Assembly (NCBI GenBank): GCA_050084515.1 | Contig: CM114271.1 | Span: 38,316,001 to 38,380,000 of the forward strand | Source of the DNA: Blasia pusilla | Lineage: Eukaryota | Direction of reading: 5' to 3' | Length of the DNA: 64,000 bases | In this document: piece by piece, positions 1,910 to 35,770 of the stretch | Numbering within the stretch: position 1 is the first letter of the stretch | Layout of the letters: every line of letters begins with the position of its first letter | Program-made: the position numbers and the translations under genes | Notes under the pieces: model-generated | Told to the model about the DNA's origin: nothing | Seen by the model: only the letters and a program-made list of their open reading frames with translations | Databases searched by the model: none

Positions 1910-4900
1910 AACTCCATAGTGTTGCAGGTTGAGCAGATGTGTTGTAGGCTAGAATAATTGCAAATAAACGGTGCAGTGCAGAACCTATACGGATCATAAA
2001 AGCTTCTTGAAAGCAAGAGAACACTTCCCTATTATCCTCAAGAAGTCCCAATTCAATAGCAGCCTCCTTGAATATTGGACATAATATTCCATTGACAGTT
2101 CTCAAGCATTCGTATGTGGTTGCTCCTCGAACATGATGGAGGAGTAATCTCAACCAATGACATTCTCCTTCACCTATGAAGAAGTGAAATAAATCAGCTC
2201 ATCCCAATATATAAATACATTACTTTAGATAGTGGCACACAAAAGCAAATGTACTAAAAAAACTTCAAAGTATTCATTTGGATGAGTAAGGTATAAGCGG
2301 CTAATAGGATGGCCACAACCGAAGGAAAATCTCTATATAGATATTATGGAGCAGTCGAGTCACATAGATTGGTTGCAAACCATTCTGTCAAAGTCGTCTC
2401 TCTATTTACTTGTAGAACATCTTGAGGAGCGTCAACATCGTTGAAGTAGACTATTTGCTACTCTGGAAGATGAATTGCTAATCGCACAATACTTGGAAGT
2501 TCAGTATGTATGCTAAACTTAAAGAGTCGCCAACATGCCTCTGAAGAAGAAATATATCTGGAAAAATAATAATTCCAAGTGTTGAAGTAAGGAGAATGAA
2601 GTAATGTTGGAAAATAAAATATAATGCATATCAATCAATTAGCAAAATCATACCCTATATCAAGATATGACGTCGTCTCGTCAACGACGTCGATTGCGTT
2701 GGATGTATCCATATCCTTTGACAACTTAAATGACACAGCATCAGATCCCTTACATACGTATTTGTATAAGTACTTCACAGCAGAAACCATACTTATGATC
2801 TCCAAATTAATGTGACAATCAAAGAGCATGCACAACAAAGGATTGTAGGGCACAACCCAACGATTATCCAACGAATGTTCACGCTTAACTATCGCCCTCC
2901 CATTCTCCAATCTACAAAAACACAATGACATATCAAGACCTCATTACATTGGCGTCATGTGCTATACAATAATAAAGATAAGCCGTGATGAAAAGATCCT
3001 TACATACGATAGATCGGTTATCCATCTTCTGTCTCAATAGTACTGGCCGCAAAAGGTTTGGGATAATCTTTTGTACACTTTTTTGTTTCCTTATCCATAC
3101 ATGGTGCATTTGGATTTAATGCTCCACATGGATCGTGAAGCATGAAATTAGCAACAATAGAATGTAACCTTGGATGGGTAGATTTTTCAGGGATTTGAGC
3201 CAAAATAATATTATCATAAGCATAAGTGGTACGTGGTTTATCCTCACGCCCTAAAATAATAAGCATGTGCACATGCGGCGGACCTCTTTTTTGGAATTCC
3301 ACCACATGGATGCATCCTACAACTTGACCCAATATTTGCTTGTCAATGATAAGTCGTAAAAAATCCTTTTTTTTCTTCTCAAAAACTCGTACAAGTAAAT
3401 CTGGTCGATCTGCAACTGATTGACCAAGTAATAAGGCTAAGGTAATCTCCTCCAACTTAGGATTGCATGTCATGGTCAAAAAGTAGTCAAGTTTTCCCAA
3501 ATGTCTTACAATCGCCATTGCATCCTAATAACATTGATGTATATGACGTAATCCTCCAGTAAAAGAAGAAAGTAATACAATGCGTCCCCCAAACCTTCAA
3601 CTATCCACATCATATCGATGCATGGCATCCTTAACACCTTGGTATAATTCAGCCCTTAATTCTTTTGATTCAAATGAACCCATGATAATCGTTGCATTTC
3701 TAAAGTGGCATAGAGGTCAAACATATATTCTTGAGTAAGTTGAACGAACCGCAATTACCGATTGTCATCTTCCCCTCCAATCCGCGTTTGAAGTCGAAAA
3801 CATGCAAATTTCAAGGCCGTTACACTCTGTGTTCTTCTTTCCTCAATAGCATCACCATCAACTCTCTCGCCATCTATGCCTTCATCTGAATGTTCAATGT
3901 GTCCCTCTTCCCCATGAATAACATGGTCCGATTGTTGGCATCCAAAACTCTTCAACGGTATCCCAAGATGCCAACCTGCTTCACTGTAGATAAATAATAA
4001 AACAAAGTGTAATAGAATATATGCTTCATTGAGGTCAGATACACGCTTCACTCCTCCTCCATGCAATTGTACAATTATATCACGATGGTCAATGTGTTCA
4101 CTTCCATCGCGCAGCAAAATAGCATCAACCTCATAAGTAGTTGGTAAGTTATAACGCTTCACATCCATACCTCTCTTACTTGCCTTGAGAATGATCCGTA
4201 TATTCAGATCACTTGCTTCATACTCCATATGACGAAAGATCTTCACATATAGATTGCATTGATGCAACATGTCTTGCAGCCCTTTCAAGATGTCTATGTT
4301 AAGATCAGAAGATCTAAACATAACTCTTCCTTGATTCTCCGATTCATTCACAGTATCATGACTGTAGAGTTAAGAAAATTGGGGATGGCCCCCTATATCA
4401 AGATGTAAAGGTTCAATAGAATGATAGATGTCGCCTTGGACCCTAAAGTGTCAAGTACCACCAATTTTTTCATTTACATGCACTCAAGTAGATGCAAGTT
4501 GAAGTGCAGAATTGTAAGCTTCAACATGTGTAAGAAGATGAAGACTTCTAGGACCAACACTGGAAATCAACATTTTTAGAAATGGAGGAGACGATTTCAA
4601 GAGGGGTAATTGTGTTCTCCCATGGCCACAACACATGCCATATGGTGAATCATTAAACTTATAACCTTTGACCTTTTCACATTTCCAATGCAAGGCACGA
4701 CATGACGGGGATATCTCTATCATAGAACCCAATGTATGACGACCGCTAGTACGATTCAAACTCCTTTGTAATCGCAACTTCCTAATATCACTTTCTTGGA
4801 AGTTTGGTCTCCTTGCAAGATTGACAAATGTATTTACTCTAACAACCCTATGAATAGTAGATAACGGGCGAATTGTAGAAGCATTTGGTATAGTGAACTT

Positions 4901-5500: not shown

Positions 5501-5794
5501 GATTCAAGGGAATCGAAAGTCTGGAACAACACTAGAATTTCAGAACAAAGAAATTTAGATGTCATTATTATAAAGGATGGAAATTTGGACTCAAAAAATG
5601 TTCGCCAATGAATTGAACTTACGTTGGAGATATTTCAAGGAGTGGTTTGTCTTCAATGTTTGTTTGTTGTGCTAAAATTTCCTTACAACGTGTACGCCTT
5701 TTCTGTTGTGCATTCGCACACATCAATTTTCGAAAGTCACGCAAATCTGTAAGATTTGACGGAAGAGGAAGTATGTGCAACAATTAATTCAGGG

Positions 5795-6147
5795 TGTCAT
5801 GACCATCCGGATTATGTCGTAGAGTATAGTGTGCTAGTAGAGGCCATACCTTATGTAGGGCCGTAGTGTCTAGGTAGAAATGCGGTTTCATCCATAGGGT
5901 TGGGGGTTACTCCGTTGAGGGTGACTTTTCCAGTAGGGCCCGCTCTTAGGTTGGAGGACATAGTGTGGAGTGCACTCAAAGAACAATTAGTTCTTTGAGT
6001 TGAGCCTGTTGCGTTGGGAGTTAGCCTTGGTAGTGAGTAGAGCTCTTGGCTATGGTGGTTCCCGCAAGCTTCGACCTGGATTCTCCCATCGTGGAGTGGG
6101 TTTGGCTCGATTGTATATGATTCTATATATTTTTTATGACAGTAGGT
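5795..6147 (+). repeat. A repeat, copy 1 (5' LTR-like) of element 2
   Basis: Direct repeat of 15781-16134, about 21 differences in about 353 bp by hand count. TGTCAT...ATGACA inverted ends (5795-6141). Confidence 0.95.
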
Positions 6148-7700
6148 CTTTCATGGATTTCACTCAAAGAACTAGAGTAGATCGATGGTAGCTTTGATCG
6201 TGGATCAGTAGGATCTCGTTATGGCTGATTGTGTACTCAACCGTGGATGTTTGTGGCTTGTGGCCTATGTTGGAGGTGGGAATCTGGTGCATGGTTGGTT
6301 GGGAAAGAAGTGCCTTGCTAAGAGCTTTCCAACGCGCTTTAGATCGCCGGATTTTGTCAAGGCAGTTTGAAGTTATCAAAGATTGAAGATTCTGGTTCGT
6401 GTTCGACGGTTTTCTGATGTGAAGAGCTTGGACTGCGGAAGCTCTGTTCAAGTTCATCCAGATCGGGTGAGAGGTTCCTATTGCTACCTGTATTGTGATC
6501 TCATGTGAAGCTATCTGCTTGAGTGTGTGGAGCGTTGCGGATTTCTGTGTGCATGAATCTGGGCGGAAGTGTTGTCGGATTTGCGATTTTGGAGGTGTAT
6601 GGACAACAAGTTTGTCTGATTTTTAGCTCGGAGCACAGAGCTCAATTGTAGCTGATATTTTGAGGAGAGATAGCTATGGTGATCAATTGAATTCTGGTAA
6701 AAAAATTTTCAATTTTGGTTGAGGATTTGTGGAGTAATTGCTGATCGAAATTTTGCGGACTAGCTCAAGGTCTAGCTACTATGGACAACAGATCCGAGGG
6801 GCTGGTTGGTTGGTGACTCGTCTGTTGTTGGAGACGCCTATCCCATTGGGGGCGCCCTGGTTGGGCCTCTCTCCATAGAAAAGGATGGCGAAGTGTGGCA
6901 AACGGGGCATGGCTCGAGCATTTCTCGGCGGTTTGAGGCTTCCAGGCTTCCAGGCAACTCGTGGTAGCTCGGAGCGAGTGGGCGTGAGAGATGGAGTAAG
7001 GAGCAAGGAGCAAGGAGCAAGCAAGCAAGCTTGCTTGCTTGGGCGTGAGGCAGTTTTTGCAAGATTTGTGAGTTGAGTGTTGCATTACTGGTCACCCATC
7101 TTTGGGCTATTCTGCCTGGAAGATGCTTAACTACTGAGTTCTTAACTATGCCAATGTACACACATGTGTAGCTCATTTGGTGTTGTTCGGAGATATGTTA
7201 GGCGCTTTATGCATCTCGGGTTTTTGGTTGATGGACCTATAGCGCATAGTACGGTGTAGCCTCTCCATGAAGGTGATATTTTCATGTGCTGCTAGTGCGA
7301 CTAGCACGTCATCGACCAGCGGCGGAGTAGCTATTGCATTAGAATTGTGTGGTGGGTTCTGTGGATTCAGGGGGCACCACGTTTGATGGATTGTGTTACC
7401 TTGATTTCCATTTGCGATTGGAGGGTTGTCGTTGGACTTCTTGTGTTTGGATCCCCTCCATCGTTGCTTCTTGCTTGCGCGCCCATTGTTAGGGTTGACG
7501 CTGATTTCCAGAGTAGTTTTACTCCTGTGTGCTACCGGTAGTGAGGCTAGAGTGATGACCAGTAGACCATGGGAGGCTTCTTGTGGTGATGACATGTTAA
7601 GTTGCCTACACCCATAGCTAGTAGAGCTAGAATAATACAACGACATCGACGTCACTTGGTTACTTAGTGGTGGTGATTTGGTGGTGGTGCGGCATCGGCG

Positions 7701-9300
7701 TTGGTCATCACGGAGCTGGCTGGTGGTCTGGTTGGGGACCGTGGTGCGGACGGTGGTGGTTTTACATGGAGTGGATTGAGGTATCGGCTACCTTTTCCAC
7801 TTCCGACGGTTGACGAAGAGGAGGACGGGGATGTTCCAAACACCGAGTCTTCTACGTTGTTATCGAGTGTTGCAGCTCCATTGATTTGGGACATGGACAA
7901 AATATATAGGGCCATGAAGGGCCCACAACGATACTCGAGTGCAGCGGGCACCATTGAAGTGGAGGACTTCATTCAGGAGTTTGATACGTGGTGTGATATG
8001 CAGATGTTGCGGAACGCCACGTTGTTTACACCCTTCTTGGCTTGGAAGGGGTTGTTTAAGCACTTGGAGGGACCACCCATGGATGATTACCATGAGTTTA
8101 GGAGGGACCATGCTGCTGAGATTGAGGTGTGGAGACAATATTGGTCTCCAGGCTATGTGTCTATCACCCATGGTGGTAGTGGTAGTAGTGCTCTTACTGT
8201 GTCAACCAGCCCGACATTGAGTGGTGCGAGTACGAGCCGGAGTGGGGGTCCTAGTGGAGGTACCAGTGGGGGTACTAGTGGAGGTACTAGTGCTCCACCA
8301 TTCATTCAGCCCGGTTGTAGAGTTCTTCAAGAATTAAGAAGAACTATCAGGGAGTGAAGATAGAGAAGTTGAGGAGTCTTCAGGAATTTGAGCGAAAGAT
8401 TGGTGAGAGTCTTCGTGAGGCATACACTTGTATGTGACGCTTGATTTAAGTTACCCAGGGTGTGAATGAGGCTCAGGCAGTCTAGTTTTGGTATGGGATC
8501 TTGGACAAAGACTTGCGCTGCAGGGTACGTGATGCTACTCTTATGAGTGATGATTCACCCACATTGGCCCATGTGTTTGCTCTATTTGAGAAGATTGAGC
8601 TTAACATGGTGGAGGAGAGAGTGGTGACATCCGCATTCAGTAGGGATACAACTACTACTTCTCGTGTTCAGCAGTCCACCTCACAGTCTCGTAGTAGTGG
8701 TGGTGGTAGTCGTAGTGCAAGTCGTGGGGGGTACATACGACCTCAGTCAAGTCCTAGAGGGACACCTGCGTAGCGACCATTGCCTTCATTTGCTGCCCCT
8801 GCAGCAAGGACAGTCATGTTGGACATGTGGAGGTGATCATGATAGGAGGTTTTGTTCCCAAGAGGATGGGAGACAAACTTTGGAGGATGGGCCTCAGTCG
8901 GCGCCAACTCAGTGTGATCATTGCGGGAGACCAAGTCATCCTCGAGACCGTTGCTTTGATCTTCATCCATATTTGCGATCAGGCCGCGGCCGTGGTGGAG
9001 TAGCTCCAAGAGGCCGAGGTGGCAAGGGTGGTAGAGGTGGACCAGTGGTTGGAGAGCCTACGGTGGCTACCCCTACCACTACAACAGAGTCAGCTATGGC
9101 TTCCAGGATTGAGCAGTTGGTGCAGAGGTTGGCTATTATGGCTGGTATACGGCATAGAGCAGGTTCGGGAGCAGGGGCTTCCACCTCTTATGGAGGGGAT
9201 GATCTCTCTTATATGGCGAGTGCAGCACAGGTTGAGGCATCAACTGCGATTCTGAGAGGAGCCACTGAGGCGTCGAGCCACGTGGTGCTACTGTGGATTT
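7701..9300 (+). pseudogene. gag: capsid-like region, two zinc knuckles, RGG tract; frameshifted
   Basis: VEDFIQEFDTWC; CWTCGGDHDRRFC and CDHCGRPSHPRDRC knuckles; RSGRGRGG..RGRGGKGGRGG. Confidence 0.8.
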
Positions 9301-9759
9301 GGACCCATAGAGGGGTGAGGCTGGGAAGCAGGCTAGGCTTCCCCAGTCATTCTTGTTGTCTGAGGTGCTTAGGACTCCATCCATGGTTCCTACGCAACCT
9401 ATTGAGCCTACAGTGGGGACTGAGGCATCTACATCGCGTGTAGTAGACACGGATGTAGCATCCAGTGTAGTATTATGGATGGCAACTTCAGTGTTGGGAT
9501 CCCCATTGTTTTCAGCCACTGAGTTGATGGCCTTAGGAGTTGACTTAGCTCATGTATTTCAGCTAGCAGCCACGTTGTGTGAACGTGGGAGTGTTACTGC
9601 TACACGTGTTGAGGTGGATGAGGGTGTTACGGTGGAGCGACCCTCTATGTTAGGTGTAGCATTGAGTACTAGTGCTACTTGGCATGCATCAGCGGTGAAG
9701 ATGGAGGCATTACCAGCTAGACCAGCCATTGATCGTGAGAGGCTTACACCTGGTGTATG

Positions 9760-10150
9760 TATGTTGGACAACCGCAGTGGGATATTCCGATTGGTGAGTC
9801 CTACAGGACAGGTGTATAGACCAGATAGAGTCTTGTTAGACTCTGGTGCACAACCTTTGATGTTGGGAAAGGCGGCATGTATTGGTTTGGGTATTCGGAG
9901 GTCAAAGCTTAAGCCTTGCCCATTCTAGATTCAAACATCACTTGGAGGAGCCAATGATAGGTCTCAATTCATGACGCGGGAGAAGTTGTCTGTACATTTG
10001 AGATCGGATCATGCGACTGATAGCTCTTGGTTGGGAGTACTTGTAGTGGTCACATCAGCCGAGTTGTATGATGTACTAGTTGGAGGAGCAGTATTATACC
10101 CGATGGGTTTTCAGATGGACTACTGGACTGAGATAGCGTCTTATAGATCT
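9760..10150 (+). pseudogene. Retropepsin-type aspartic protease
   Basis: VLLDSGAQ catalytic motif and downstream YDVLVGG..L motif. Confidence 0.85.
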
Positions 10151-10566
10151 GGTTGGCAGTCCGGGGATGGACTTATGAGCAAGGTTCCTGTGAGGTGTAT
10201 TTATGGGCTCGACTAGGAGGGTCTTCCCCAACAATGTTAGCATCCGTGGCTCGTTTTAGTGCAATAGTCACTTGGCTAGGAGACTTTTTGGAGGGTAATC
10301 TTTCTGCTATGGATTCTCCTGTGCATGAGGAGGTAGAGGAGGTCCCTATTTTTGCAGTAGTGGCATCCTCATCGTTGGATGTCCCACTTTGGAGTTCAAG
10401 CGGTTCACTACGGCAGGAGGCTGATCGCCTAGTGCAGGAGGCTTGGTGTGAGGCCATTATACCTCACGAGGAAGAGGAGGCCCCACGGCGGACTCCTACT
10501 TCTGGTCCAATTGGGTTATCCCCTCTGGATACTACACCCATTGTATGGCAGTATCCGCCGGAGGGC

Positions 10567-11502
10567 ATTTGTGTGTTAGATCTCTTTGGTGGGATTAGCA
10601 TTGGTTTGGCTGCAGTATTGCAGGCCGGTATTCTTGTGCGGAGATATGTGTATGTGGAGTGAGATGAGACGGCCCAGAGAGTCTCATCCCGACATATTGG
10701 TCAGTTGATGCGGAGATATCTTGAGTTGTTGCCACCATCAGCTATTCGTGGGTACCCGCGTGCTTTGCCGTCACACATTGCATTGTTGGGGGCGTAGGAC
10801 CTTGAGAGGGTTGGTCCTATGGATTTGGTGATTTCTAGATGGCCATGTCAGGGTCATAGACCTGTTGGTCGTAGTGAGGGATTACCCGACCCTAGGTCTC
10901 AATTGTTTTGGGAGATGTTACGGGTGTTACGACATCTTCAGGTTCATCAGGTACGTGCTCCAGCTTACATTCTGGAGAATGTTCCATTGTTGGGTGACAC
11001 TCAGACCCGGATGATGGCGAGTGTTCATGAGATGCGGTCTTGGATTGGACCAATGGTGTTGTTGGATGTAGCGCGAGTTGGCTCGCGTGCACATCGTCCA
11101 CGCTTGTGGTGGACAAACTTGTTGCCTAGGGAGGTTCTACGTCGAGCATATGATGTAGTGCAATGGGATCCTTGCCTTGTAGTGGATAGTATCTTGGATA
11201 CTGGGCAACTTCCTCAAGTGGTGAGGGTTATAGATCGGTCATCCATGGCAGTGGTGAACCGTGTGGGCCAGCCTAGGATGGCACTACCCATATTTGTGAG
11301 TTTTCCCTCATCACATGCCTACAAGGAAGGTGGTCCTGGGCTTGTATGGGATTCTCATGTGCGACAGTTGGTGGAGCCTAACGCTGATGAGAGAGAGCGT
11401 GCAATAGGATTTGCTATTGGTGTGACAGCGGTTGCTTCCATTTATGAGGCTTCACAACGTCATGTGTTGTGTCAGGCCATGGACCTGAATTGTTTGACCT
11501 AG
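10567..11502 (+). pseudogene. C5 cytosine DNA methyltransferase domain (DNMT3-like) inside the pol polyprotein, two internal stops
   Basis: One reading frame with motifs in order: I VLDLFGGI, II YVYVE, IV GPMDLVISRWPCQG, RSQLFWEMLRVL, VI YILENV, VIII LDVARVGSRAHRPRLWWTNL, IX ERERAIGF...T, X QRHVLCQAMD. Confidence 0.9.
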
Positions 11503-11889
11503 ATTTTGAGTCTTGGTATGGCCGAGCAACGTTGACTTTGCACTATGTCTATGGGTCTTCCACCCCTTGTGATGAGCTTGATGGCTACCGGGACGGTAGA
11601 GACATCGATTGGGAGCGAAGAGAATAGTATTTTGCATCCTTGGAGTAAATGGGATGTAATGGCTGGGCATGTGGAGTTGGTTGCTCATGCTGGTGGAGGA
11701 GTTATTTTCTCAGATGATGGTGTAGCTAAGGATGTATCATGTTGTGAGGGGGTTGCATAGCACCCAATGGCGTCGTCCTCTCCCTCTAGTGTGCCAATGG
11801 AGGAGACTTGGGAGCCATTACTTGGGCCCAAGCTTACGGGAGGTGAGAAACGACGCTTGACACAGTTCCTACTTGCTTATAGTAGTTGT

Positions 11890-12685
11890 TTTGCCTTTGC
11901 ATGAAGGAGTTGGGTGCTTTGGTTGGACCCGGTATACGGATTCCTTTGGCTAGTGATACGCCAATCTTCCTTCGTCCCTACCGATATAGTGATATGGAGA
12001 AGGACCTGATTCAGAGTAGGACGTTGGACCTTTTGGAGGCTGGACTAGTGGAGTTGTCGCATGGAGAGTATGCATGAGCCACGGTCATGCCTACTAAAAA
12101 GGATGTGCATGGCAACTACACGGATAGGCGGATGTGTGGAGATTACCATCCTATCAATCGGTAGACCAAGGCCGATATGTATGCCATGCCTACACCTCTT
12201 GAGATCTTTGATGTGGTGGGACAGGCAAAGATTTTTAGTACTTTGGATCTTCGGGCAGGATACCATCAGTTGCCGATTCGAGAGAGTGACAAGGCCAAGA
12301 CAGCATTTTGGGGTGTCAACTCTCATGGCAAGGATTTTTTGTACCAGTGGAAATTCTTACCCTTTGGGTTGAAGAATGCACCTGCCGAGTTTCAGAGAGT
12401 GATGGACATGATCCTAGCAGGGTTGGATTTTGTTCGGTGTTTCATTGATGATATCTTGGTGTTCAGTAATATGGTGGAGGAGCATCAGATACATTTGCAT
12501 ATTATGTTTGAGCGGTTGAAATCTCATGGTCTAGGTTTGCATCCAGGAAAGTGTAAGTTCTTCCATGAGGATGTTGAGTACTTGGGTCATGTGATCTATC
12601 CAGATGGTTTGGGAGTTCAGCAAGCAAAGGTGGAGGCTATTGCACTTTTTTCTCGTCCGGTAGATGTGAGTAGAGTTCGGGCATT
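11890..12685 (+). pseudogene. Gypsy-type reverse transcriptase
   Basis: PYRYS, RMCGDY, FSTLDLRAGYHQ, KTAF, LPFGLKNAPAEFQR, FIDDILVFS, KCKF..EYLGH. Confidence 0.95.
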
Positions 12686-13302
12686 TTTGTGCGCATACAT
12701 ATCGCTACACAACATACATCGCTGGTCACATCTACACCACACAACACCGATCTTCTCCACACACGGGTCGATCCACACATGTACAAAAATCAACTCATAC
12801 ATATACATGGAGATCACACAACAAACATAAAGAGTAGTAAAAACGGCACACCCGGCCTAAAACTCCACTCCTCAATCTACATCGATATATCGAGCCTCGT
12901 CCACCCTGTGCTATCAAGGAATCCGGACGCTAGCACCCTCGTCCTCTCTCACATACATACAAGGGAGGTGCTCCAACAGCCCAACATGAGAAAGATGGCT
13001 TAGGAAAGCCATCTTCCTCTCTTATATAGGGTTGGGAAGAGCCAAAAGGCTCTTCCCCTAAAAATAGCCCTCTCCTTGGTAACCTGCGCGCACAGGTTAC
13101 CAAGGGCGGGTGACCTGGTCAACAAGTCACCCGGATGTGAAAGACCTCAACATGAAAGTTGTCAGAAACGACGTTCCTGACACAATGGACCTATCTTCAA
13201 CCTCATCCGACACCATGGGACAAAGTTACACTCAAGATAGTTCGCTTGCTCCTACGCCCTATCCACGATAGATCTCGACCTATCGACTACTCAGATGTGA
13301 CA
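12686..13302 (-). mobile_element. Solo A+B terminal-repeat unit of a related family, inserted antisense at the RT/RNase H connection
   Basis: GCATT duplicated at 12681-12685 and 13303-13307; removing the insert restores VRAFMGLVNYY. Minus strand reads TGTCACA...gcgatatgtatgcgcaCA-AA, matching the B end of element 1. Confidence 0.88.
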
Positions 13303-13860
13303 GCATTCATGGGATTGGTGAACTACTATCAGAGGTATGTGAAGGGACTTAGTGTTGTGGCAAAGCCTTTGAATCAATTGTTGAAATCAGATTAGGAGTG
13401 GAAATGGGGAGATGATCAGGAGAGAGCTTTTGTGGAGCTCAAGGCCCAATTGGTGGCGGCGCCTATCTTGAGGAGACCTATTAGAGGACGCCCATTTCAG
13501 TTATACACTGATTGGAGTAGGTTGGGACTTGGAGCGGTGTTGACACAACATGATGATGAGCACATGGAGTTTTTGGTGGCCTATGCAAGTCGTTCGAATA
13601 ATGCAGCGGAGTCGCGCTATAGTTCATATGAGGGAGAGTGCTTGGCAGTAGTGTGGGTTGTGGCACACTTTAGCTGTTACTTGTTTGGCACACAGTTTAC
13701 CCTTGTTACTCATCACCAGCCGCTCAAGTGGTTGATGGAGTCTGACAAGCTTACAGGGAAGCTTGCACGGTGGGCTCTTATCTTATAGGAGTATGACTTC
13801 CAGGTGGTACATAGACCTAGAGTTGCCAACCTTGATGCTGATGGGTTGAGTACATGTACT
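13303..13860 (+). pseudogene. RT connection and RNase H
   Basis: FMGLVNYY, LYTDWS..GLGAVL, YASRS, YSSYEGECLAVVW, HQPLKWL, NLDADGLS. Confidence 0.92.
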
Positions 13861-14199
13861 AGCCAAGAGGATGCAACTGGGGCTAGATGGCATGGCGAGG
13901 TTGATGAGGAGATGGTGCCAGGTTGGCATGCATCTGCCTTTTTATGTTGGTTAGGGGTGGACTCTAGTATGGAGGACCACATGACATCTTACTCTAGTCA
14001 GAGGGTAGATGGCCAGCCTTCAGATCCTAAGGTTGGAGATGGTGGTACGGATCAGCGTGATATTCATGATGATGCGTTGGTGTTGGAGTTCCTACGGACC
14101 AGTAGGGTGCCAAGTATAGTGAGTGCCAAGGAGCGAGACCGTGTTCTTCAACGTGCTAAGAGGTATCGATTGGAGGGAACACATATTCTCCGTGTGTAG

Positions 14200-15508
14200 G
14201 AGGATGGTAGAGTATGAGTAGTGCCGCATTTGGCTCAGAGAGAGCGCATTGTGCGACATGCCCATGAGGAGTTGGGACATTTTGGGGTAAAGCGTACGTA
14301 TAGCTTACTCCTTGGTCAGTATTGGTGGCATGGCATGCATACTCAAGTGCAGCAGTTGGTGTCACGTTGTATGGTTTGTGACCGGATGAGGGCATCATTC
14401 AATGCCCCTACACCATAGTTACAACCTTGCCTATTATGGGGTTGGGTTACCGTTGGAATGTGGACTTTGCGGGACCGTTACCGTTGACTGTAGGACATCA
14501 TCGATATGTGTTGGTGATGGTGGAGCACTTCTCCAAGTGGATTGAGTTGGTGGCATTTCCTGACAAGGCAAGTGAGGGAACGGCGTATGCGTTTCTTGAT
14601 AGAGTGCTTAGTCATTTTGGTGCATCAGTTGAAGTGTTGACCGACCAGGGTACAAAGTTTCAGGGTGAGTTTCAGGTCTTGTGTGACAAGGCGTTGATTG
14701 ATCATCGGACCACATCTCGAGATCATCCAGAGGCGGATGGTTTGGTTGAGCATGTGGTTAAGACGATGAAGAGGGCATTGCGCAAGTATGGCCTACAGAA
14801 GGGGCATCTTGGAGACTGGGATATTCAATTGCTATGGTTAGCCATGGGGTATAGGTTCAGTCGCCAAGCATCCTTGGTTTCCTTCTCACCTTATTTTCTA
14901 TTATACGGCCAAGATCCAAACTTGCCTGCATCAATTCGTCGGGAGTCTAGTAAGGTGGTGAACCTTGACGACCCAGAGATGTGGATGAGAGTGTGTTCTT
15001 AGTGTGCAGAGCTCTTTCGGAGAGTTATGCCAACAACCTTCGAGAATCTTGCCATTGCTCAACACAGGGATACGTTGCGGTATGCAACCATTCGAGGTGG
15101 AGGTTATCGACCATTGATTCATAGTTCCATGTGGGGGACTATGTCTATTTGTAGCATATTGCACCGACAACGTTGGATGTGACGGCAGGTCGCACTATTT
15201 TACGAGTGCGCTAGGTGTTAGCTTCTGGAGTTCTCATGTTGGAGGGTCGTGATGGAGTTGTTTGGAAGGACCATGTGCGTAATTGTGGGCCATGTCATCT
15301 TCCAAATGTGGATGGTAATGTTGACCCAAGCTTAGCCATGATACGTGCTAGCTTGAGGTGTATGTTGTGTGGGTCTGCTAGTAACGCAGCCCGTATGTTG
15401 GTGTGTGATCGGTGTTCTAGGGGTTGGCACATGATGTGTTTGACTCCACGTATGGATGTTGTTCCTATTGGAAGGTGGGTTTGTCCTCGATGTACTTACG
15501 AGGGATAG
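14200..15508 (+). pseudogene. DDE integrase (HHCC plus catalytic core) with C-terminal PHD finger (15359-15493)
   Basis: HAHEELGHFG..CMVC, VDFAGPL, LTDQG, DGLVE; then CMLC-x-CDRC-x-H..C-x-WVCPRC. Confidence 0.92.
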
Positions 15509-15674
15509 ATGACTTGATCTTTGCATGATATGGATTACACATGTGCAACTAACGATGGGGCAACCTAGCACCCGGCCTTCTGATTTTTGCACCCACGAAG
15601 GTGTATAACATGTAGTAGATGTATAGGGCTACCTAGGAGTTAGAGGGACCTAATCGCCAGTTAGGGGAGCAAGT

Positions 15675-15778
15675 TGTGGTACACTTGTGTTTGTGGATGC
15701 TCTCGTCTATGTTATATATGTATATGAGTATGGTATGTCAGCGATGTATGTTGTATGACGATGTGGATTCGCACGACA
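15675..15778 (+). repeat. B repeat, copy 1, of element 2, preceded by a polypurine-tract-like aggggagcaag (15663-15673)
   Basis: tgtggtacacttgtg...gcacgaca recurs at 16133-16235. Confidence 0.93.
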
Positions 15779-15780
15779 AC

Positions 15781-16134
15781 TGTCATGACCATACGGATTA
15801 TGTCGTAGAGTATAGTGTGCTAGTAGATGCCATACCTTATGTAGGGGCCGTAGTGTCTAGGTAGAGATGCGGTTTCATACATAGGGTTTGGGGTTACTCT
15901 GTTGAGGATGACTTTTCCAATAGGGCCCGCTCTTAGGTTGGAGGATATAGTGTGGAATGCACTCAAAGAACAGTTAGTTCTTTGAGTTGAGCCTGTTGCG
16001 TTGGGAGTTAGCTTTGGTAGTGAGTAGAGCTCTTGGCTATGGTGGCTCCCGCAAGCTTTGACCTGGATTCTCCCATCGTGGAGTGGGTTTGGCTCGATTG
16101 TGTGTGATTCTATACGTGTTTTATGACAATAGGT
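15781..16134 (+). repeat. A repeat, copy 2, of element 2
   Basis: Direct repeat of 5795-6147. Confidence 0.95.
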
Positions 16135-16235
16135 GGTACACTTGTGTTTGTGGATGCTCTCGTCTATGTTATATATGTATGTGAGTATGGTATGTCAGCG
16201 ATGTATGTTGTATGACGATGTAGATTTGCACGACA
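16133..16235 (+). repeat. B repeat, copy 2 (element terminus), of element 2
   Basis: Direct repeat of 15676-15778, followed by the AGGG TSD. Confidence 0.93.
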
Positions 16236-17044
16236 AGGGGCAATGAATGATTAGGGTATATACATGCAAAAGACTGGCATGAAAGCCATCATCGTGGAAA
16301 TAGAAATAAGGTATTAAAAAAGTTCCTTACATCGGAGACGTGTTCTTATATACTTCAATTTGTCTCTTGGAAATTAGTTGAGGAATTGGGACATTTGTGA
16401 GAACACCCAACAGTAATCTCTCCACGTTTGGTAACAACCCCTCCAAACTTGCCATATGCATAACACAATGCAGAAATATTAATTTAAAAATATTTTTAAA
16501 TACCAAAAGATAATTATGTAACTAAAATTTGAAAAAGTAGGAGAGTAGAGGGGTTTTCCTTTTTTTTGGAGGGAAAAAAATAAGGAAAAAAAGAGCATAT
16601 TCGACATCCCAAACCTATCCCTTCCCGAACCCGACCCTACGACCCACTCCGCCGTTCAATGGAGATGTAATGGCCAGATGTAATCGGCCGTTGGATGGCA
16701 ACCTAACCCAAATCGGCGGAGGTGGCGGTCCGCCATGGCAAGGTCTCCGCCGGCCCTAGGCAACTCCGCAGTCGCCGCGGGCCCTTGGCGCCTCGGGCCC
16801 CCTTCCCCATCGACCTTCCCCCTCCCCATTCGGGCAATCGACACTCCTATCCAAATGGGGAGGGGGAGCAAAACTCGCTCTCCCCTCCACTTTCCTTCCC
16901 CTCTCGATCGCCTCTTCTCAACTACTTCGGGGTCTGCTCTCTTTTCGACTCTCAATCGCCTCCACTCAGCAACTTCGGGGTTTGCTTTCTCTTCGACTCG
17001 GGCTCGTAAGGCTTCGGCTTGTGGTCTCTCTCCGCTTTGCTGTC

Positions 17045-19108: not shown

Positions 19109-22100
19109 TATTGGATTCTCAACATCCACTCCTCTGAGCACCAGTGATTTGATCGGCCCCCTTGTATGAGGAAAAGCCTAGATCGATGGTTCCGACTTAG
19201 ACGTTGAAGGAGTCATAGTAATATGACGTAGGTGGTTTACGGAGTAGCGTTACTAGGTTTATCTAACCCTATATTGCATCAGGGTGCGGAGCACCCTGAT
19301 GCATCGCGGGGGTCCGGGTTTAGGGTCAAGACGACGCGGGGGTCCGGCAAAATTTTTCTATTAATAGAAATGAAGAAAAATAGGTAAAAACCCTAGTTTT
19401 CCCGAGTAGTCAAATAGTCGGGAGCCGCAGCGGTAGCGCATTCTCGTATGTCGAGTTATCTCCCAGTTCAGGTTCCATCGAAGCTCTTCTGTGAGCGCAC
19501 GGACGGACTAGGCCACTTTGTATCTCTAAGTTTTTGTAAAGATTTCAGTGATTTAGTCACTTTCTGTTTTCTCACATGGTATTAGAGCAGTAGGTTTTTC
19601 CAGTATTTTGTATCTGGCGATCTAGTGTGTTTGCACAAAATCTTGAGAGATGGCTACTTCTTCGTCAGTTCGTGCTCGCCCCTCCTGCATTTGGGTGAAG
19701 GGAAGTTAGATGGGTCTAACTATACGTTGTGGAAGTTCAAAATGAGAACTGTTCTCGAATCATTTGAGATCTGGGAAACGGCCACAGGGGTCGATTCAAA
19801 TCCACAAGCTAGTTTGAGTTCTGCAAGTTCATCTTCATCTGAGGATATCGATCCTGTTGTATTATTGGCATGGAGACGTAGAAACGCTGATGCTCTATAT
19901 GCGATTGTCACGAATGTAACTGATTTTGTCATGACTCTCATTCAACATACAACCACTGCTGCTAAGGCGTGGAACATTTTGAAGAATCAGTATGAAACGA
20001 GGAATGAGACTCGGATTCAAAATCTGGAGAATCAGCTTACGTTCGAGAAATTTTCAGAAGGAGAAAGCGCGGAGCAATTTTTGACAAGGATCAAGAATCT
20101 TCAAGATCAGATGGCGTCCTTGGGAATTTCAAAGTCTAGCGAAGATTTGGCACGCCGATGCATAAGGATTTTGCCTCCAAGGTATGACAGTTTGGTCACT
20201 GCACTGAATACTCAAGTAAGACCCACGCCGCTTACTTTTGAACAATTTAGTGCAATGTTGGTAGAAGAGGAAATGCGCTTCAAAGCAAGAGAGGGAAGTG
20301 ACGCAAACATTTTCGCCAACGTCTGAGAGAGGTAGAAATCAGGATTACAGTTCAAATGTCAAGAAGAAATTTCCAAGAAAAGCCTTCAAATGCTTTTATT
20401 GTGGTAAGCTAGGTCATCTTATCAAAGATTGTAGGAAGAGAAGTCAGGATGAGAAGAACGGTTGTTTAAGACCTAAGAAGGAGTTTGGAAAGTCAGAGAA
20501 CCAGGGGAGAACATGAAGTAGATGCTTGGGTAGCAATAGAAGAGTTCATACAGCGGAACATACCACTAAGACAAAGAGTGAAGATTCATGGGTGCTCGAT
20601 AGTGGAGCATCTAGGCATATGACCAATCATAAGGATTGGTATAGCTCTTACATCCTCTCTGAGCCCATCGTTATTCTTGTTGGGAATAATGCAAAGTGCC
20701 CAGTAGAAGGGAAAGGCACAATTTCTTTAGTCTCACAAAAAGGAGATGAAAAGAAGTTAACGATGTACAAGACGTACGAGTTGAAGCGAAATTTGATTTC
20801 AGTGGCAGTATTATGTGATCGTGACCTAGAAGTTCGTTTCAAGAAAACTGGAGCAGTCATTGAGGATACCAATGGGAAAGTAGTGGGTGAAGGTATACGA
20901 CGTGGAAATATCTACGAGTTGTATGCTTTCACGACAAGTGTAGGTACAGATCTTAGTAGCAGTAAGTTGTGGCATGAAAGATTTGGTCACCTAAGCTTTC
21001 CCTTACTAAGTCAGATGCAGAAATCTGGCATGGTTGCTGATTTACCAACAATTTCTGGAGTGTCGGATACTTGTGAAGCTTGTATGATGGGCAAGCAACA
21101 CCAACAACCATTTCCACAAGAGTCCAGCAATAGGGCAAAGGCTCCTCTAGAGTTGATACATGCTGACCTCTGTGGTAAAATGAGAACGGTGGCATTAGGT
21201 GGTTCTTCCTACTTCTTTTTAATTGTCGACGATTATAGTAGGAAGATGTGGGTGTATTTCCTTCGTGATAAGGCAAGTGCTTTTGGAAAATTTAAAGTAT
21301 GGCACAAGCTGGTTGAGAATGAGACAGGAAAGAAGGTACAAAAGCTTCGCACCGATCGAGGAGGAGAATTCTTATCAGAATTCAACAAATATTTGGGAGA
21401 GCATGGAATCAATCGACAGATTAACCACGGCAGCACATACACCACAACAAAATGGAGTTGTTGAGCGTCAAAATCGTAAATGAGTGGTGGAGATGGCAAG
21501 ATGTATGATGAAAGCAAAAGGTTTGTGAAGGCTTTTTGGGTGAAAGCTATTATCTTGCCAGTATACATTCTAAATAGAAGTGCTACCAAGTCGGTGCAAG
21601 GCATGACTCCTCATCAATCATACTCGGGTAAAGTACCATCGGTCCAACATTTCAGGACTTTTGGTAGTGAGTGTTTTGTACATATTCAAGCATCGAGGAC
21701 CAAGTTGGAGTCCAAGAGCAGGAAGTGCATCTTTATGGGATACTGATGATGAGTCTAAAGCTTATCGCCTTTGGTGTCCTGAGGAAAAGAAGATGCTTGT
21801 GAGTCGTGACGTGGTGTTCGAGAACGAGCCTCGTCAAGTGGCGGATATCGATGGTCCGTCCACATTATCATCAAACGAAGAGATAACCCACCAGAGCACA
21901 CCACAGATGTTTACACGAGATCATGAAGAAGAAGATTTTGGTGATGATTACAAAGAGCAACCTGCTCTTCCACTACGGTCGTCATACCCTAAGTGGATAA
22001 AGCAGCTCTTGGATGGTAAGGATCCACCAGCAACTGATGAAGTTGTTACACATCCAAGGAGATCCAAGAGACTAGAGGAGCAGAATAGAGCTTCCGCACA

Positions 22101-24121
22101 TCTCGTCAATATGGCCCTGATGACAGAGGTCTTGAAGGTGGAAGAGCCATCATGCTTGGATGAGGCCCTGGCTCATCCTCAATGGAGAGAGGCCATGCAG
22201 ACGGAGATGGACGCTATTCAGAGGAATGAAACTTGGACTTTGGTTGAAAAGCCAGAGGACATGAAGATAATACGCACCAAGTGGGTGTACAAGACCAAGT
22301 ACAAGTCGGACGGTATATTGGATAAATTCAAAGCGAGGTTGGTCGCACAAGGATGCTCATAAATCGAAGGCTTTGACTACTATGAGACTTTTGCTCCCAC
22401 TTTGCAAGGATGACAACCATTCGAATTGTTCTAGCGGTTGCGGGGAACAAGGCGTTGGCTGTATATGTCTACGATGTGAAGTCTGCTTTTTTGAACGGGA
22501 GTCTCAAGGAGGAGGTATATGTTTCTCAACCACCAGGTTTTGAGACACCCGGATCAGAAGAGAAAGTTTGTTTACTTCATCGAGCATTGTATGGGTTGAA
22601 GCAAGCCCCAAGGGTATGGTATCAACGAATAGATACATTCTTTCAAGAGAAGGGTCTCATGAAGAGTCCTTCAGAAGCAAATTTGTATGTGTTTTGCGAA
22701 GATGGGATGTATATATTGATAGTCTTGTATGTGGATGATCTGATCATCACAGGAGACCACAGTAAGAAAATAGAGGAAATGAAGGGAGTGTTGGAATCTG
22801 AGTTTGAAATGTCGGATTTAAGTCTTCTGCACTACTTTATAGGACTGGAAATTTGGCATGATGATTCTATTTTTCTCTCTCAGCAGAAGTATGCTAGAGA
22901 AATCTTGAAGGCATTCGGGATGACCGAGTGTAAGGCAGTGGTCTCGCCAATGGAGGTAGAGTTGAAACTCTCGATGGAGGATGTTTCACCATTGGTAGAT
23001 GAAAAGATGTACAGAAAGCTTGTAGGCAGTTTGATATTTTGTGTAACAGTAGACCAAACATTAGCTTCGCTGTGGGAGTATTGAGTAGGTTCTCAACTAA
23101 GCCTCGTGAGAACCATTGGAAGGCAGGGATGTGTGTGTTGAAGTACATCAAAGGCACTATCGAGTACGGCATCACCTATGGAGCAGGGACGGAAATGACA
23201 GGTTTTTGTGACTCAGATTGGGTAGGAGATTTAGATTCTCGAAGATCAGTTTCGGGTTATTGCTTCTTGGTAGGATGAGGTGTGGTGTCATGGGTCAGCA
23301 AGAAGCAACCTACAGTGGCTCTTTCTTCTACCGAGGCAGAGTACAAGGCGACTTGTTATGCTTCTTGTGAAGCAGTATGGTTGAGATGGATCTTGGAGGA
23401 CATAGGAGAAGCACCGAGAAAGTGCTCTTTGAATGTGGTGTGACAATCGAGTTGCATTGCCATAGCACATAATCATGTGTTTCATGCTCGTCTGAAGCAC
23501 ATAGAGATCGTACCATTTTTTTCGTGAATTGATCGAGAGAGAGGTTTTGAAGTTAGTCTATTGTCCAACAGAGGATAACCGTGTAGACATCTTCACGAAA
23601 GCCTTGAGCGGAGATCAGCTTTACCGACATCTGAAGGATCTTGGCATAGGTCCAAGATAGTAGTCCACATGAGAATGGATATTGAGGGGGGGTATTGGAT
23701 TCTCAACATCCACTCCTCTGAGCACCATTGATTTGATCGGCCCCCTTGTATGAGGAGAAGCCTAGATCGATGGTTCCGACTTAGACGTCGAAGGAGTCAT
23801 AGTAATATGACGTAGGTGGTTTACGAAGTAGCGTTACTAGGTTTATCTAATCCTATATTGCATCAGGGTGCGGGGCACCCTGAGGCAATATAGGGCAAAT
23901 TTTTTCTATTAATAGAAATGAAGAAAAATAGGTAAAAACCCTAGTTTTCCCGAGTAGTCAAATAGTCGGGAGCCGCAGCGGTAGCGCATTCTCGTATGTC
24001 GAGTTATCTCGATTCAGTTCCATCGAAGCTCTTCTGTGAGCGCACGGACGGACTAGGCCACTTTGTATCTCTAAGTTTTTGTAAAGATTTCAGTGATTTA
24101 GTCACTTTCTGTTTTCTCACA
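19109..24121 (+). mobile_element. Complete Ty1/Copia LTR retrotransposon
   Basis: LTRs 19109-19576 and 23693-24121 (TA...CA); TSD TACTA; PBS tggtattagagc (tRNA-iMet type) 19577-19588; PPT gaggggggg before the 3' LTR. Confidence 0.97.
19649..23660 (+). pseudogene. Copia gag-pol (gag, zinc knuckle, PR, IN, RT, RH) with many frameshifts
   Basis: LDGSNYTLWK, CFYCGKLGHLIKDC, WVLDSGAS, LWHERFGH, IHADLCG, RTDRGGEF, DVKSAFLNG, LYVDD, DSDW. The many small indels may be partly sequencing error. Confidence 0.95.
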
Positions 24122-35633: not shown

Positions 35634-35770
35634 CTGCATGGCAAGTAGATAGAAGCACGCAAAAATATCAGCGATACTTACTGGTGCATCACCGACGGAA
35701 TCAGACAGGCTACCATGCGAGCGATTGGCAGGATGAGATTGGTGAGAGTCGGGATGGCGACATTCATCGT

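Follow-up and report, generated by a model that had tools for sequence, protein, structure and literature searches.

A decayed Ty3/Gypsy retrotransposon in Blasia pusilla with a DNMT3-like cytosine methyltransferase domain between protease and reverse transcriptase

The window analysed here is a 64,000-nucleotide stretch of Blasia pusilla DNA, and its positions 5795-16235 hold, on the plus strand, one old, dead copy of a Ty3/Gypsy family. The copy is 10.4 kb long, contains the methyltransferase domain described below and is flanked on both sides by the 4-bp target-site duplication AGGG (5791-5794 and 16236-16239), its termini reading AGGG/TGTCATG...CACGACA/AGGG with TG...CA ends. The pol order PR-RT-RNaseH-IN, the DDE integrase, the TG...CA ends and the short target duplication identify it as Ty3/Gypsy, and we hold this identity and family membership with high confidence. 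The Pfam search gave no match to a tyrosine recombinase (Phage_integrase); rve and Integrase_H2C2 are present instead.

The coding part, all on the plus strand, starts with a gag-like region at 7677-9443, which includes a CCHC knuckle and is broken by frame changes and stops; it is seen both in the open reading frames and by tblastn of the Marchantia protein P0123, whose residues 1-450 align to 7893-9272 in frames 3, 2 and 3 with four stops. The aspartic protease region (9272-10201, frame 2) contains LLDSGAQ and a protease-like ORF at 9311-9928, and by tblastn it is 67% identical to residues 451-758 of P0123, with two stops. Pfam Asp_protease_2 finds no match in the window copy, though it does in the relative P0141. 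Downstream of the methyltransferase domain (10567-11502), the first part of the reverse transcriptase occupies 11889-12679 (frame 3, residues 723-957 of the Marchantia polymorpha protein P0128), and the Pfam match to RVT_1 extends over 12165-12830 (E 4.1e-30). It is interrupted at 12680-13302 by an insertion of 622-623 bp that is missing from relatives: the insertion-free joint (12679/12680 to 13302/13303) occurs in 20-40 RNA reads per run and also in DNA contigs. RNA reads on the insertion itself come mostly from the opposite strand (bin 12820-13180), and 71 nt of it are 83% identical to an inverted copy at 1220-1287. The end of the reverse transcriptase and the RNase H follow at 13303-13788 (RT_RNaseH 4.4e-33, RT_RNaseH_2 1.6e-31; RNase H at 13396-13788). 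The integrase zinc-binding region and DDE core lie at 14218-15002 (rve 9.3e-13 at 14382-15002; INzn and IN by tblastn). C-terminal to the integrase, at 15215-15508, a PHD finger (PF00628, 6.5e-11, 42.5 bits) keeps all eight zinc ligands.

The repeats of the element are split. Repeat A1 (5795-6147, beginning TGTCATG) is 94.07% identical over 354 columns to A2 (15781-16134), and B1 (15676-15779, ending CACGACA) is 97% identical over 104 nt to B2 (16133-16235), the last bases of which, CACGACA, form the right end of the element. A polypurine tract, AGGGGAG (15663-15669), stands a few bases 5' of B1. Two identical long terminal repeats around an internal region were not found in the window; the order is A1...B1-A2-B2 (A-coding-B-A-B), with no B 5' of A1.

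The methyltransferase domain is read on the plus strand in a single frame (frame 1 of 10447-11502, translated as P0001 with stops as X) and is recognized by its motifs, PF00145, phmmer and the family alignment. Motifs I, IV, VI, VIII, IX and X are all readable and in unrearranged order. Motif I is LDLFGGIS (from about 10576), followed by YVE and then a stop codon; motif IV is WPCQG, containing the PCQ with the catalytic Cys; motif VI is ENVP, motif VIII SRAHRPRLWWTNL, motif IX ADERERAIGF and motif X LCQAMDLN. PF00145 (DNA_methylase) matches at 27.6 and 27.9 bits (E 2.4e-6 and 2e-6), above the curated cut-off of 22 bits, over only profile positions 62-119 of 324, that is, motifs IV-VI. Among PDB sequences phmmer ranks catalytic domains of DNMT3A first (E 2.7e-9), in an alignment that spans motifs I-VIII and displays SAAHRARYFWGNL and EMERVFGF, the DNMT3 strings named in the original prediction; DNMT3B follows at 1.2e-7, DRM2 at 0.06, M.HhaI at 0.26 and DNMT2 at 0.32. 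The original prediction, made from the letters of the window, had described an intron-less C5-methyltransferase with its motifs in canonical order in one frame, resembling DNMT3 and set between protease and reverse transcriptase inside the duplication-delimited ends of a dead element. Each of these points is borne out: the six motifs share frame 1, no intron-like break was seen in the reading frame of the domain, the DNMT3A match and the PF00145 check agree with the proposed affinity, and the protease-like ORF and RVT_1 lie on either side.

The copy is decayed throughout. Two in-frame stops (codons 72 and 117 of P0001) fall within the domain, and comparison with the family alignment shows that two conserved glycines have been replaced, one just ahead of WPCQ (AGW has become SRW) and one in motif X (LGQ has become LCQ). 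Because of these two stops and two lost glycines, the methyltransferase of the window copy cannot be functional; beyond the domain the damage consists of further stops, frame changes and the 622-bp insertion.

The affinity to DNMT3 is clearer in the intact relative P0002, for which phmmer against the PDB gives DNMT3A/3B as best (6e-12), then a tobacco DRM (1.2e-8), DRM2 (1.6e-4), M.HaeIII (3.5e-4) and DNMT2 (0.0069). The AlphaFold model of P0002 has a pLDDT of 91.3, and among the Foldseek matches listed for it all are DNMT3A/B/C (E about 1e-19 to 1e-16); TM-scores normalized to the target are 0.79-0.85 for isolated DNMT3 catalytic-domain chains. Judged by sequence and predicted fold, the element domain is nearer to DNMT3 than to DRM, DNMT2 or bacterial enzymes, and its motif order is not permuted.

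The domain recurs in many relatives. Near-length protein matches (n=183) include Calypogeia, Riccia and two species each of Sphagnum and Marchantia, with Closterium as a more distant named relative; 14 of the 24 longer matches are polyproteins of Marchantia polymorpha, annotated there as gene models. P0123 carries gag-PR-DNMT and P0128 PR-DNMT-RT-RH, each in one ORF, and PF00145 scores 24.7-43 bits on the relatives. Metagenome stretches confirmed to encode a relative number 452, from which 80 loci were retained. Where enough upstream sequence is present the protease ends within 900 nt 5' of the methyltransferase in 57 of 60 loci, and where enough downstream sequence is present the reverse transcriptase starts within 2.5 kb 3' of it in 46 of 52; no metagenome locus examined has another domain order. 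The original prediction had envisaged a land-plant lineage of such elements and pointed to other copies as a check: the named relatives from liverworts and Sphagnum mosses confirm the former, and these counts answer the latter. The order PR-DNMT-RT is common to two subfamilies that are mutually only 35-39% identical. Motifs I, IV, VI, VIII, IX and X are kept across the family alignments, including the catalytic Cys, ENV and the RxR of motif VIII. In the second subfamily E replaces the P of the catalytic PCQ (ECQ), a change that might abolish catalysis.

Two pol layouts are found among the long proteins with the domain: in 129 of 163 it lies between RNase H and integrase (RH-DNMT-IN), and in 29 of 163 it has the PR-DNMT-RT order of the window. 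In the DNMT tree as in the RT-RH tree a single branch (SH-aLRT 97 and 99, respectively) separates the two layouts, and every one of the 20 PR-DNMT-RT rows lies on the same side of it. Because the two trees agree in grouping these 20 rows, the methyltransferase domain has travelled with its reverse transcriptase; both trees are unrooted, are built from rows without plant host DNMT3 or DRM, and are silent on donor, direction and number of captures.

The domain has been under purifying selection. Comparison of the window copy with 13 ungapped loci gives a dN/dS of 0.19-0.30 for the domain, and the medians by domain are 0.31 for DNMT, 0.16 for RT, 0.17 for RH, 0.19 for IN, 0.21 for GAG and 0.43 for PHD. 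Among all 91 pairs of close copies the median is 0.49, with values up to 0.84, as expected because decay follows insertion, and this narrows the selection argument to the deeper comparisons. Most genomic copies of the family are dead, and 62 of 64 metagenome loci have stops within the domain. The methyltransferase is nonetheless a standing, selected pol domain of a streptophyte lineage (Closterium, liverworts, Sphagnum), and not a fragment picked up. That the window holds a dead copy of a Gypsy family with such a standing, selected DNMT3-like pol domain is given a probability of about 0.85.

Relatives of the window copy are transcribed. In three raw RNA runs of one study and the same species label, with reads placed at a likeness of at least 90%, 4286-4683 reads per run fall on the element and cover all of it; the first mate maps for the most part to the minus strand, as sense RNA does, and the depth on the DNMT bins is 41-78. 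Only 11-17 reads per run are at least 99% alike to the window copy, so the RNA stems from relatives and not from this copy. Starts of sense-RNA fragments pile up at position 5956, within A1 (25 molecules against an adjacent depth of 92 in run X22; 23 against 94 in run X24), which is likely the transcription start; the 3' end of the transcripts is placed inside A2.

The A-coding-B-A-B layout is also present in L057, L058, L062, L075 and L043, and of 18 stretches that are long enough, 9 have a B...B pair 3' of the PHD finger. A perfect 4-bp duplication flanks four of the six complete elements (the window copy, L043, L057 and L058); the two sides differ by one mismatch in L075, and the flanks of L062 give no clear duplication. 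A G-rich tract occupies the place equivalent to the polypurine tract in L009, L033, L043, L057, L058, L062 and L075; no TGG-type primer-binding site is evident after A1. By reasoning from the transcript map and the polypurine tract, B+A would be the LTR unit, and ordinary LTR replication should then give B-A-int-B-A. The integrase-type TG...CA ends and the 4-bp duplications stand at the start of A and the end of B. Canonical strand-transfer schemes were reasoned through with the primer site placed either just 3' of A1 or where A begins, and with plus-strand priming before B or before A; none gives A-int-B-A-B, an arrangement that would be obtained solely as a circular permutation of B-A-int-B-A. 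Split repeats combined with a DDE integrase pose a puzzle of their own, namely how such elements replicate.

These observations can be joined into a wider picture, which is speculative and rather unlikely to hold in full: an old green-plant Gypsy family with a DNMT3-like enzyme and an integrase-PHD reader would have one layout in streptophytes, land plants among them, and another in chlorophytes, with the land-plant branch still transcribed. Its integrated copies would be circular permutations, and a DDE integrase would work on junctions of the circle or concatemer type, the element itself also writing DNA methylation. If true, this would be testable in the model liverwort Marchantia.

What the domain does in intact members can be proposed in outline. 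It would be translated within the gag-pol polyprotein, and the methyltransferase would enter the particle alongside reverse transcriptase and integrase. There it may methylate the new double-stranded DNA of the element before or at integration, while the integrase-PHD may read a histone tail by which the landing site is chosen. The original prediction had likewise proposed that the enzyme could be packaged, released by the protease and directed at the element's cDNA or insertion site, a hypothesis already put forward in the Discussion of de Mendoza et al. (2018; PMC5890265). The domain of intact copies is probably an active DNA C5-methyltransferase; that it acts chiefly on the cDNA of its own element is possible, at less than even odds.

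DNMT2 methylates RNA, and the domain might likewise be selected for something other than DNA cytosine methylation in vivo, such as RNA methylation, or serve pol as a structural module or in binding DNA or SAM. The ECQ subfamily would suit this reading: it otherwise retains the domain, at an unchanged position in pol. As described in PMC5890265, no methylation by the Klebsormidium domain was seen in yeast, where human DNMT3B likewise gave none, and RNA methylation was raised for LINE-borne DNMTs; against the reading, the SymbioDIRS-Dnmt3 domains of that paper methylate CG in yeast. The catalytic Cys, ENV, the RxR of motif VIII and motifs IX and X are however kept, and the fold and closest sequences are those of the DNA enzymes DNMT3A/B/C, with DNMT2 far worse (0.32 for the window domain, 0.0069 for P0002), and we regard a function other than DNA methylation as unlikely. 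A further alternative is that a fragment of a host DNMT3 was captured once, or that a host DNMT3 gene lies beside or inside a nested transposon. Nothing speaks for it beyond the fact that, to our knowledge, ordinary Gypsy pol has no such methyltransferase domain; both versions were rejected because the domain recurs at an identical pol position in hundreds of copies from several species, and in uninterrupted single ORFs, and because the DNMT tree mirrors the RT tree. The chance of either is close to nil.

An active DNA methyltransferase could also have the host genome or rival elements as its chief target, or serve self-limitation, and leave the element's own cDNA unshielded; both ideas are in the Discussion of PMC5890265. 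The composition of the copies is in keeping with this. The CpG observed/expected ratio is 0.58 in the element and its family and 0.93 in the neighbouring gene, and, compared with DNA contigs of relatives, C>T and G>A changes are in excess in the window copy (A/T in the window against G/C in the contig at 264 places, the reverse at 124), which fits heavy methylation of the copies. The same decay would be produced, however, by host MET1, CMT or DNMT3, and a neighbouring Copia element without DNMT is similarly CpG-depleted (0.64); a role of either kind, on other targets or in self-limitation, is judged unlikely.

Hosts fight transposons chiefly by methylating cytosines, and a transposon with its own de novo methyltransferase is therefore a paradox, one that stands eight years after such elements were described in an alga and in dinoflagellates. 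In Marchantia polymorpha genetics, methylomes and transformation are available, and the question of its purpose can be put there if liverworts and peat mosses do harbour this lineage in abundance and transcribe it. The family also matters for annotation: ORFs of relatives are filed in databases as 'DNA (cytosine-5-)-methyltransferase' or as hypothetical proteins, and could be miscounted as host DNMT genes in surveys of the plant methylation machinery.

Chromoviruses are Ty3/Gypsy elements with a chromodomain after the integrase. They share with the window element a chromatin-reader module on the integrase C-terminus, which in the latter is a PHD finger and not a chromodomain; the database relative P0353 has both according to a precomputed Pfam list. 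Cellular DNMT3 (animal DNMT3A/3B/3C and plant DNMT3) has the same catalytic fold and motif order and gives the best match in sequence and structure, with an identity to human DNMT3A of only about 22%. By contrast, the element domain sits inside a retrotransposon polyprotein with no adjoining PWWP or ADD, neither reader being found by Pfam in the window ORFs or the relatives' polyproteins, and unlike DRM it is not circularly permuted. The green-algal RT-RNaseH-DNMT-integrase-PHD polyproteins in database entries of Scenedesmus sp. PABB004, Monoraphidium neglectum and Cymbomonas tetramitiformis share the DNMT sub-type, at 35-45% identity and with E about 1e-50, and likewise combine the RT, RH and IN of Gypsy with a PHD finger that follows the integrase; their methyltransferase lies between RNase H and integrase, whereas that of the window lies between protease and reverse transcriptase.

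Literature searches returned no printed description of such elements in land plants, and no Klebsormidium protein was among the homologue-search matches or sequence-cluster members. SymbioDIRS-Dnmt3 of Symbiodinium, as described in PMC5890265, also combines a Dnmt3-like domain in Pol with A-coding-B-A-B repeats. It is a DIRS element with a tyrosine recombinase, whereas the window element has a DDE (rve) integrase, TG...CA ends and a 4-bp target duplication. The closest published counterpart is KnitGypsy-Dnmt3 of Klebsormidium nitens (de Mendoza et al., 2018; PMC5890265), which in its description has the repeats of DIRS elements together with a Gypsy domain set, and a domain with a Ka/Ks below 0.2. 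Its acquisition is placed there 'in the K. nitens lineage', and the KnitGypsy and SymbioDIRS captures are treated as independent. Measured against that description, the window element is alike in its Gypsy pol, in having within the Pol ORF a Dnmt3-like domain that is free of introns and not rearranged, in the DIRS-like A-coding-B-A-B layout and in the purifying selection on the domain (0.19-0.30 here), and the hosts on both sides are streptophytes; it differs in that the hosts of its family are land plants (liverworts and Sphagnum) and Closterium. Compared by published wording and not by tree, the window lineage is most likely that of KnitGypsy-Dnmt3. The kind is already known from one green alga; in liverworts and peat mosses relatives of it are frequent, and they are transcribed.

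The methyltransferase-like domain of the window element is a single continuous reading in frame 1 at 10447-11502, with two stop codons inside. Its motifs stand in the canonical C5 order and in one frame, as the original prediction had it: motif I (LDLFGGIS), YVE, motif IV (WPCQG), motif VI (ENVP), motif VIII (SRAHRPRLWWTNL), motif IX (ADERERAIGF) and motif X (LCQAMDLN). The Pfam DNA_methylase profile (PF00145), which had been proposed as a check, gives 27.6 bits for the longest piece free of stops and 27.9 bits when the stops are read through (E ~2e-6), above the curated cut-off of 22 bits, in a match confined to profile positions 62-119 of 324. Among sequences of solved structures the DNMT3A catalytic domains are the best matches (E 2.7e-9, the alignment covering motifs I to VIII), and the alignment contains the DNMT3A strings from which a DNMT3 likeness had been proposed; DNMT3B (1.2e-7), DRM2 (0.06) and bacterial M.HhaI (0.26) follow more weakly. 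The motif order is unpermuted, whereas that of DRM is permuted. An intact relative, P0002, matches DNMT3A at E 6e-12 and has a predicted fold of mean pLDDT 91.3. The structural neighbours of this model, among the matches listed, are all DNMT3A/B/C, with TM-scores of 0.79-0.85 (normalised to the target) against isolated catalytic-domain chains.

The domain is embedded in a Gypsy pol, as claimed. Upstream of it, gag-like ORFs that include a CCHC knuckle occupy 7677-9443 and a protease (PR) region with LLDSGAQ occupies 9272-10201, and reverse transcriptase (RT; RVT_1, E 4e-30), RNase H (E 4e-33), a DDE integrase (IN; rve, E 9e-13) and a PHD finger (15215-15508; PF00628, E 6.5e-11) follow downstream, all on the plus strand. 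Chromoviruses carry a chromodomain after the integrase, in the position taken here by the PHD finger. The 64-kb window holds no second copy or solo repeat of the element elsewhere. A Copia-type element (gag, integrase, RVT_2) at 19586-23084 (+) is likewise split into several ORFs, and at 33739-35667 (-) an intron-less open frame of 642 codons encodes a glycosyltransferase family 92 domain.

The copy is dead, as had been noted from its stops: against P0123 and P0128, two Marchantia polyproteins, its reading frame shifts at least five times, and the aligned pieces contain at least 12 stops. Reads of relatives skip 12680-13302, and DNA contigs contain the joined form, as do 20-40 RNA reads per run; the skipped stretch is therefore a 622-bp insertion into the window copy, in the RT-RNase H region. 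RNA over it comes chiefly from the opposite strand, and 71 nt of it match an inverted stretch at 1220-1287 (83%); the insert probably represents a small repeated element. At three places most RNA reads differ by one base in length from the window copy. A further joint, found in RNA only (16-36 reads per run), skips 1007 integrase-region bases at 14020-15028 with nine other letters between; it lacks GT..AG ends, and a transcribed deletion derivative is the likely source of these reads. CpG o/e is 0.58 in the element vs 0.93 in the neighbouring glycosyltransferase gene, and the window has A/T where DNA contigs of relatives have G/C at 264 places, against 124 for the reverse. Both the CpG depletion and the A/T excess are what decay of a methylated copy should produce. 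The coding strand of 5795-16235 is also strongly asymmetric (G 3108 vs C 1979; T 3018 vs A 2337).

A 5.8-billion-protein collection yielded 183 near-length protein matches, the named ones coming from Calypogeia fissa, Sphagnum troendelagicum, S. tenellum, Marchantia polymorpha, M. paleacea and Riccia sorocarpa; the 24 longer matches include 14 M. polymorpha gene models, one from Calypogeia and one from Sphagnum fallax. P0123 joins gag, CCHC, PR and DNMT within one open frame of 1278 residues, and P0128 joins PR, DNMT, RT and RNase H within one frame. A metagenome scan confirmed 452 stretches encoding relatives, 80 of which were kept as loci and form two subfamilies, whose identity to the window domain is 57-74% and 35-39%, respectively. 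Where enough sequence was available, no more than 900 nt separate the protease end from the domain that follows it in 57 of 60 loci, and RT starts within 2.5 kb after the domain in 46 of 52. The RNase H-DNMT-integrase order is absent from all metagenome loci examined. A one-off capture by the window copy is ruled out by this shared position and by the single-ORF polyproteins. Stops interrupt the domain in 62 of 64 loci examined. In the 35-39% subfamily GWECQG replaces GWPCQG in catalytic motif IV, the other motifs being kept (loci L053, L055-L072 and L074-L080; proteins P0096 and P0099), and in the protein P0145 the motif is GWECAP.

Selection was estimated by dN/dS, which for the window domain vs 13 ungapped relatives is 0.19-0.30 at dS ~0.7-0.8; in these deeper comparisons constraint on the domain is still visible. 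Median values per domain are 0.31 for DNMT, 0.16 for RT, 0.17 for RNase H, 0.19 for IN, 0.21 for gag and 0.43 for PHD. Close copies give higher values (over all 91 pairs the median is 0.49 and the maximum 0.84); such a rise is expected once neutral decay sets in.

Searched exhaustively with HMMER, 1.84 billion cluster representatives yielded 1999 proteins at E <=0.001 (176 at <=1e-30), many of them polyproteins of 1000-3456 residues; named kin are Scenedesmus sp. PABB004 (annotated "pol"), Monoraphidium neglectum, Cymbomonas tetramitiformis and Closterium sp. NIES-54. Domain mapping covered 164 proteins of at least 900 residues and located the DNMT region in 163, lying between RNase H and integrase in 129, between protease and RT in 29, before RT in four proteins where no protease was detected, and as the sole domain found in one. 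Most of these DNMT-bearing proteins have a PHD finger, which follows the integrase in both layouts; P0353 has PHD and chromo domains both listed. Trees of DNMT and of RT-RNase H were built from 50 rows with both regions present: seven PR-type proteins (all that passed the length filters), 30 of 92 RH-type proteins (four chosen, 26 random), 12 loci and the window. In these quick, unrooted trees a single branch splits the layouts (SH-aLRT 97 and 99), with P0145 and P0370 on long branches. Since the few named members fall so, the PR-DNMT-RT layout seems to belong to streptophytes (Closterium, liverworts, Sphagnum) and RNase H-DNMT-IN to chlorophytes. The nearest match to the window RT is Marchantia P0128 (84% over 355 columns), which makes a liverwort or other bryophyte the probable host. 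One 1974-residue polyprotein of the family, P0344, is assigned to a "Minisyncoccia bacterium" metagenome-assembled genome, where it is probably a binning contaminant.

The element starts with TGTCATG and ends with CACGACA, and AGGG flanks both sides, in agreement with the predicted TSD-delimited ends. Its repeats are not arranged as two plain LTRs. Repeat A1 (5795-6147) is 94.07% identical to A2 (15781-16134) over 354 columns, and A2 is bordered on both sides by B repeats, B1 (15676-15779) being 97% like B2 (about 16133-16236); no B repeat lies upstream of A1 in the window element. The same A1...B1-A2-B2 order occurs in loci L057, L058, L062, L075 and L043. Of 18 stretches with enough sequence, nine have two B repeats spaced 300-700 nt from each other downstream of the PHD finger; the remaining nine gave no automatic match, L043 among them having the layout by eye. 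In both subfamilies a G-rich polypurine tract lies directly upstream of B1. At the B1|A2 junction CA is followed, after 1-4 nt, by TG, which resembles two element ends joined. Perfect 4-bp duplications at the A start and B end mark four of six complete elements (AGGG, AAGG, CCAA, GGTC); of the other two, one has a single-mismatch duplication and one is unclear.

Three raw RNA-seq runs from one study, bearing the species label of the best-matching DNA data set, contain 4286-4683 reads each at 90% or more likeness to the element. Cover spans A1 to A2, with depths of 41-78 in the methyltransferase bins, and the first mate is overwhelmingly on the minus strand, which in most stranded libraries means sense RNA. 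Only 11-17 reads per run are at least 99% alike to the window copy (about a third are 95-99% alike), and therefore relatives are transcribed rather than this copy. Fragment starts cluster at 5956 inside A1 in two of the three runs, and depth is ~1 at 16069-16400 vs 40-47 at the A-to-internal junction (5961-6321); transcripts therefore begin in A1, and most of them terminate in A2 and do not reach B2. By this transcript map and the polypurine tract, B+A would be the LTR unit in the textbook scheme, and the expected provirus would therefore be B-A-internal-B-A. The integrated form A...B-A-B is a circular permutation of the canonical LTR-replication product; no derivation of A-internal-B-A-B from ordinary strand transfers worked by reasoning.

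Elements of this kind are known, and the window copy, whose original reading was real and correct, is a dead member. As that reading stated, they occur in a charophyte alga and a dinoflagellate: de Mendoza et al. (2018) describe Gypsy elements of Klebsormidium nitens with Dnmt3 inside Pol, and Dnmt3-bearing DIRS and LINE elements of Symbiodinium (PMC5890265). It reports purifying selection on element-borne Dnmt3 and proposes cDNA self-methylation, with CG methylation in yeast obtained only for the Symbiodinium DIRS domains and not for the Klebsormidium domain (PMC5890265). The enzyme's role in the present element can only be inferred. Full-text searches, and passages of two Marchantia/bryophyte chromatin papers as well as of PMC11982613 and of bioRxiv 10.1101/363937, revealed no description of such elements for liverworts, mosses or other land plants, although supplements may list them. 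New here are the presence, abundance and transcription of DNMT-bearing Gypsy elements in land plants, the conserved PR-DNMT-RT layout vs the algal RNase H-DNMT-IN layout, the integrase-PHD fusion, and the integrase-type ends and target duplications documented around split repeats. The split layout itself is shared: the DIRS-like arrangement is defined as A-coding region-B-A-B (legend of Fig. 1e) and ascribed to KnitGypsy-Dnmt3, the Klebsormidium element (legend of Fig. 4c; PMC5890265), and on these legends it is the layout of the window element, A1...B1-A2-B2.
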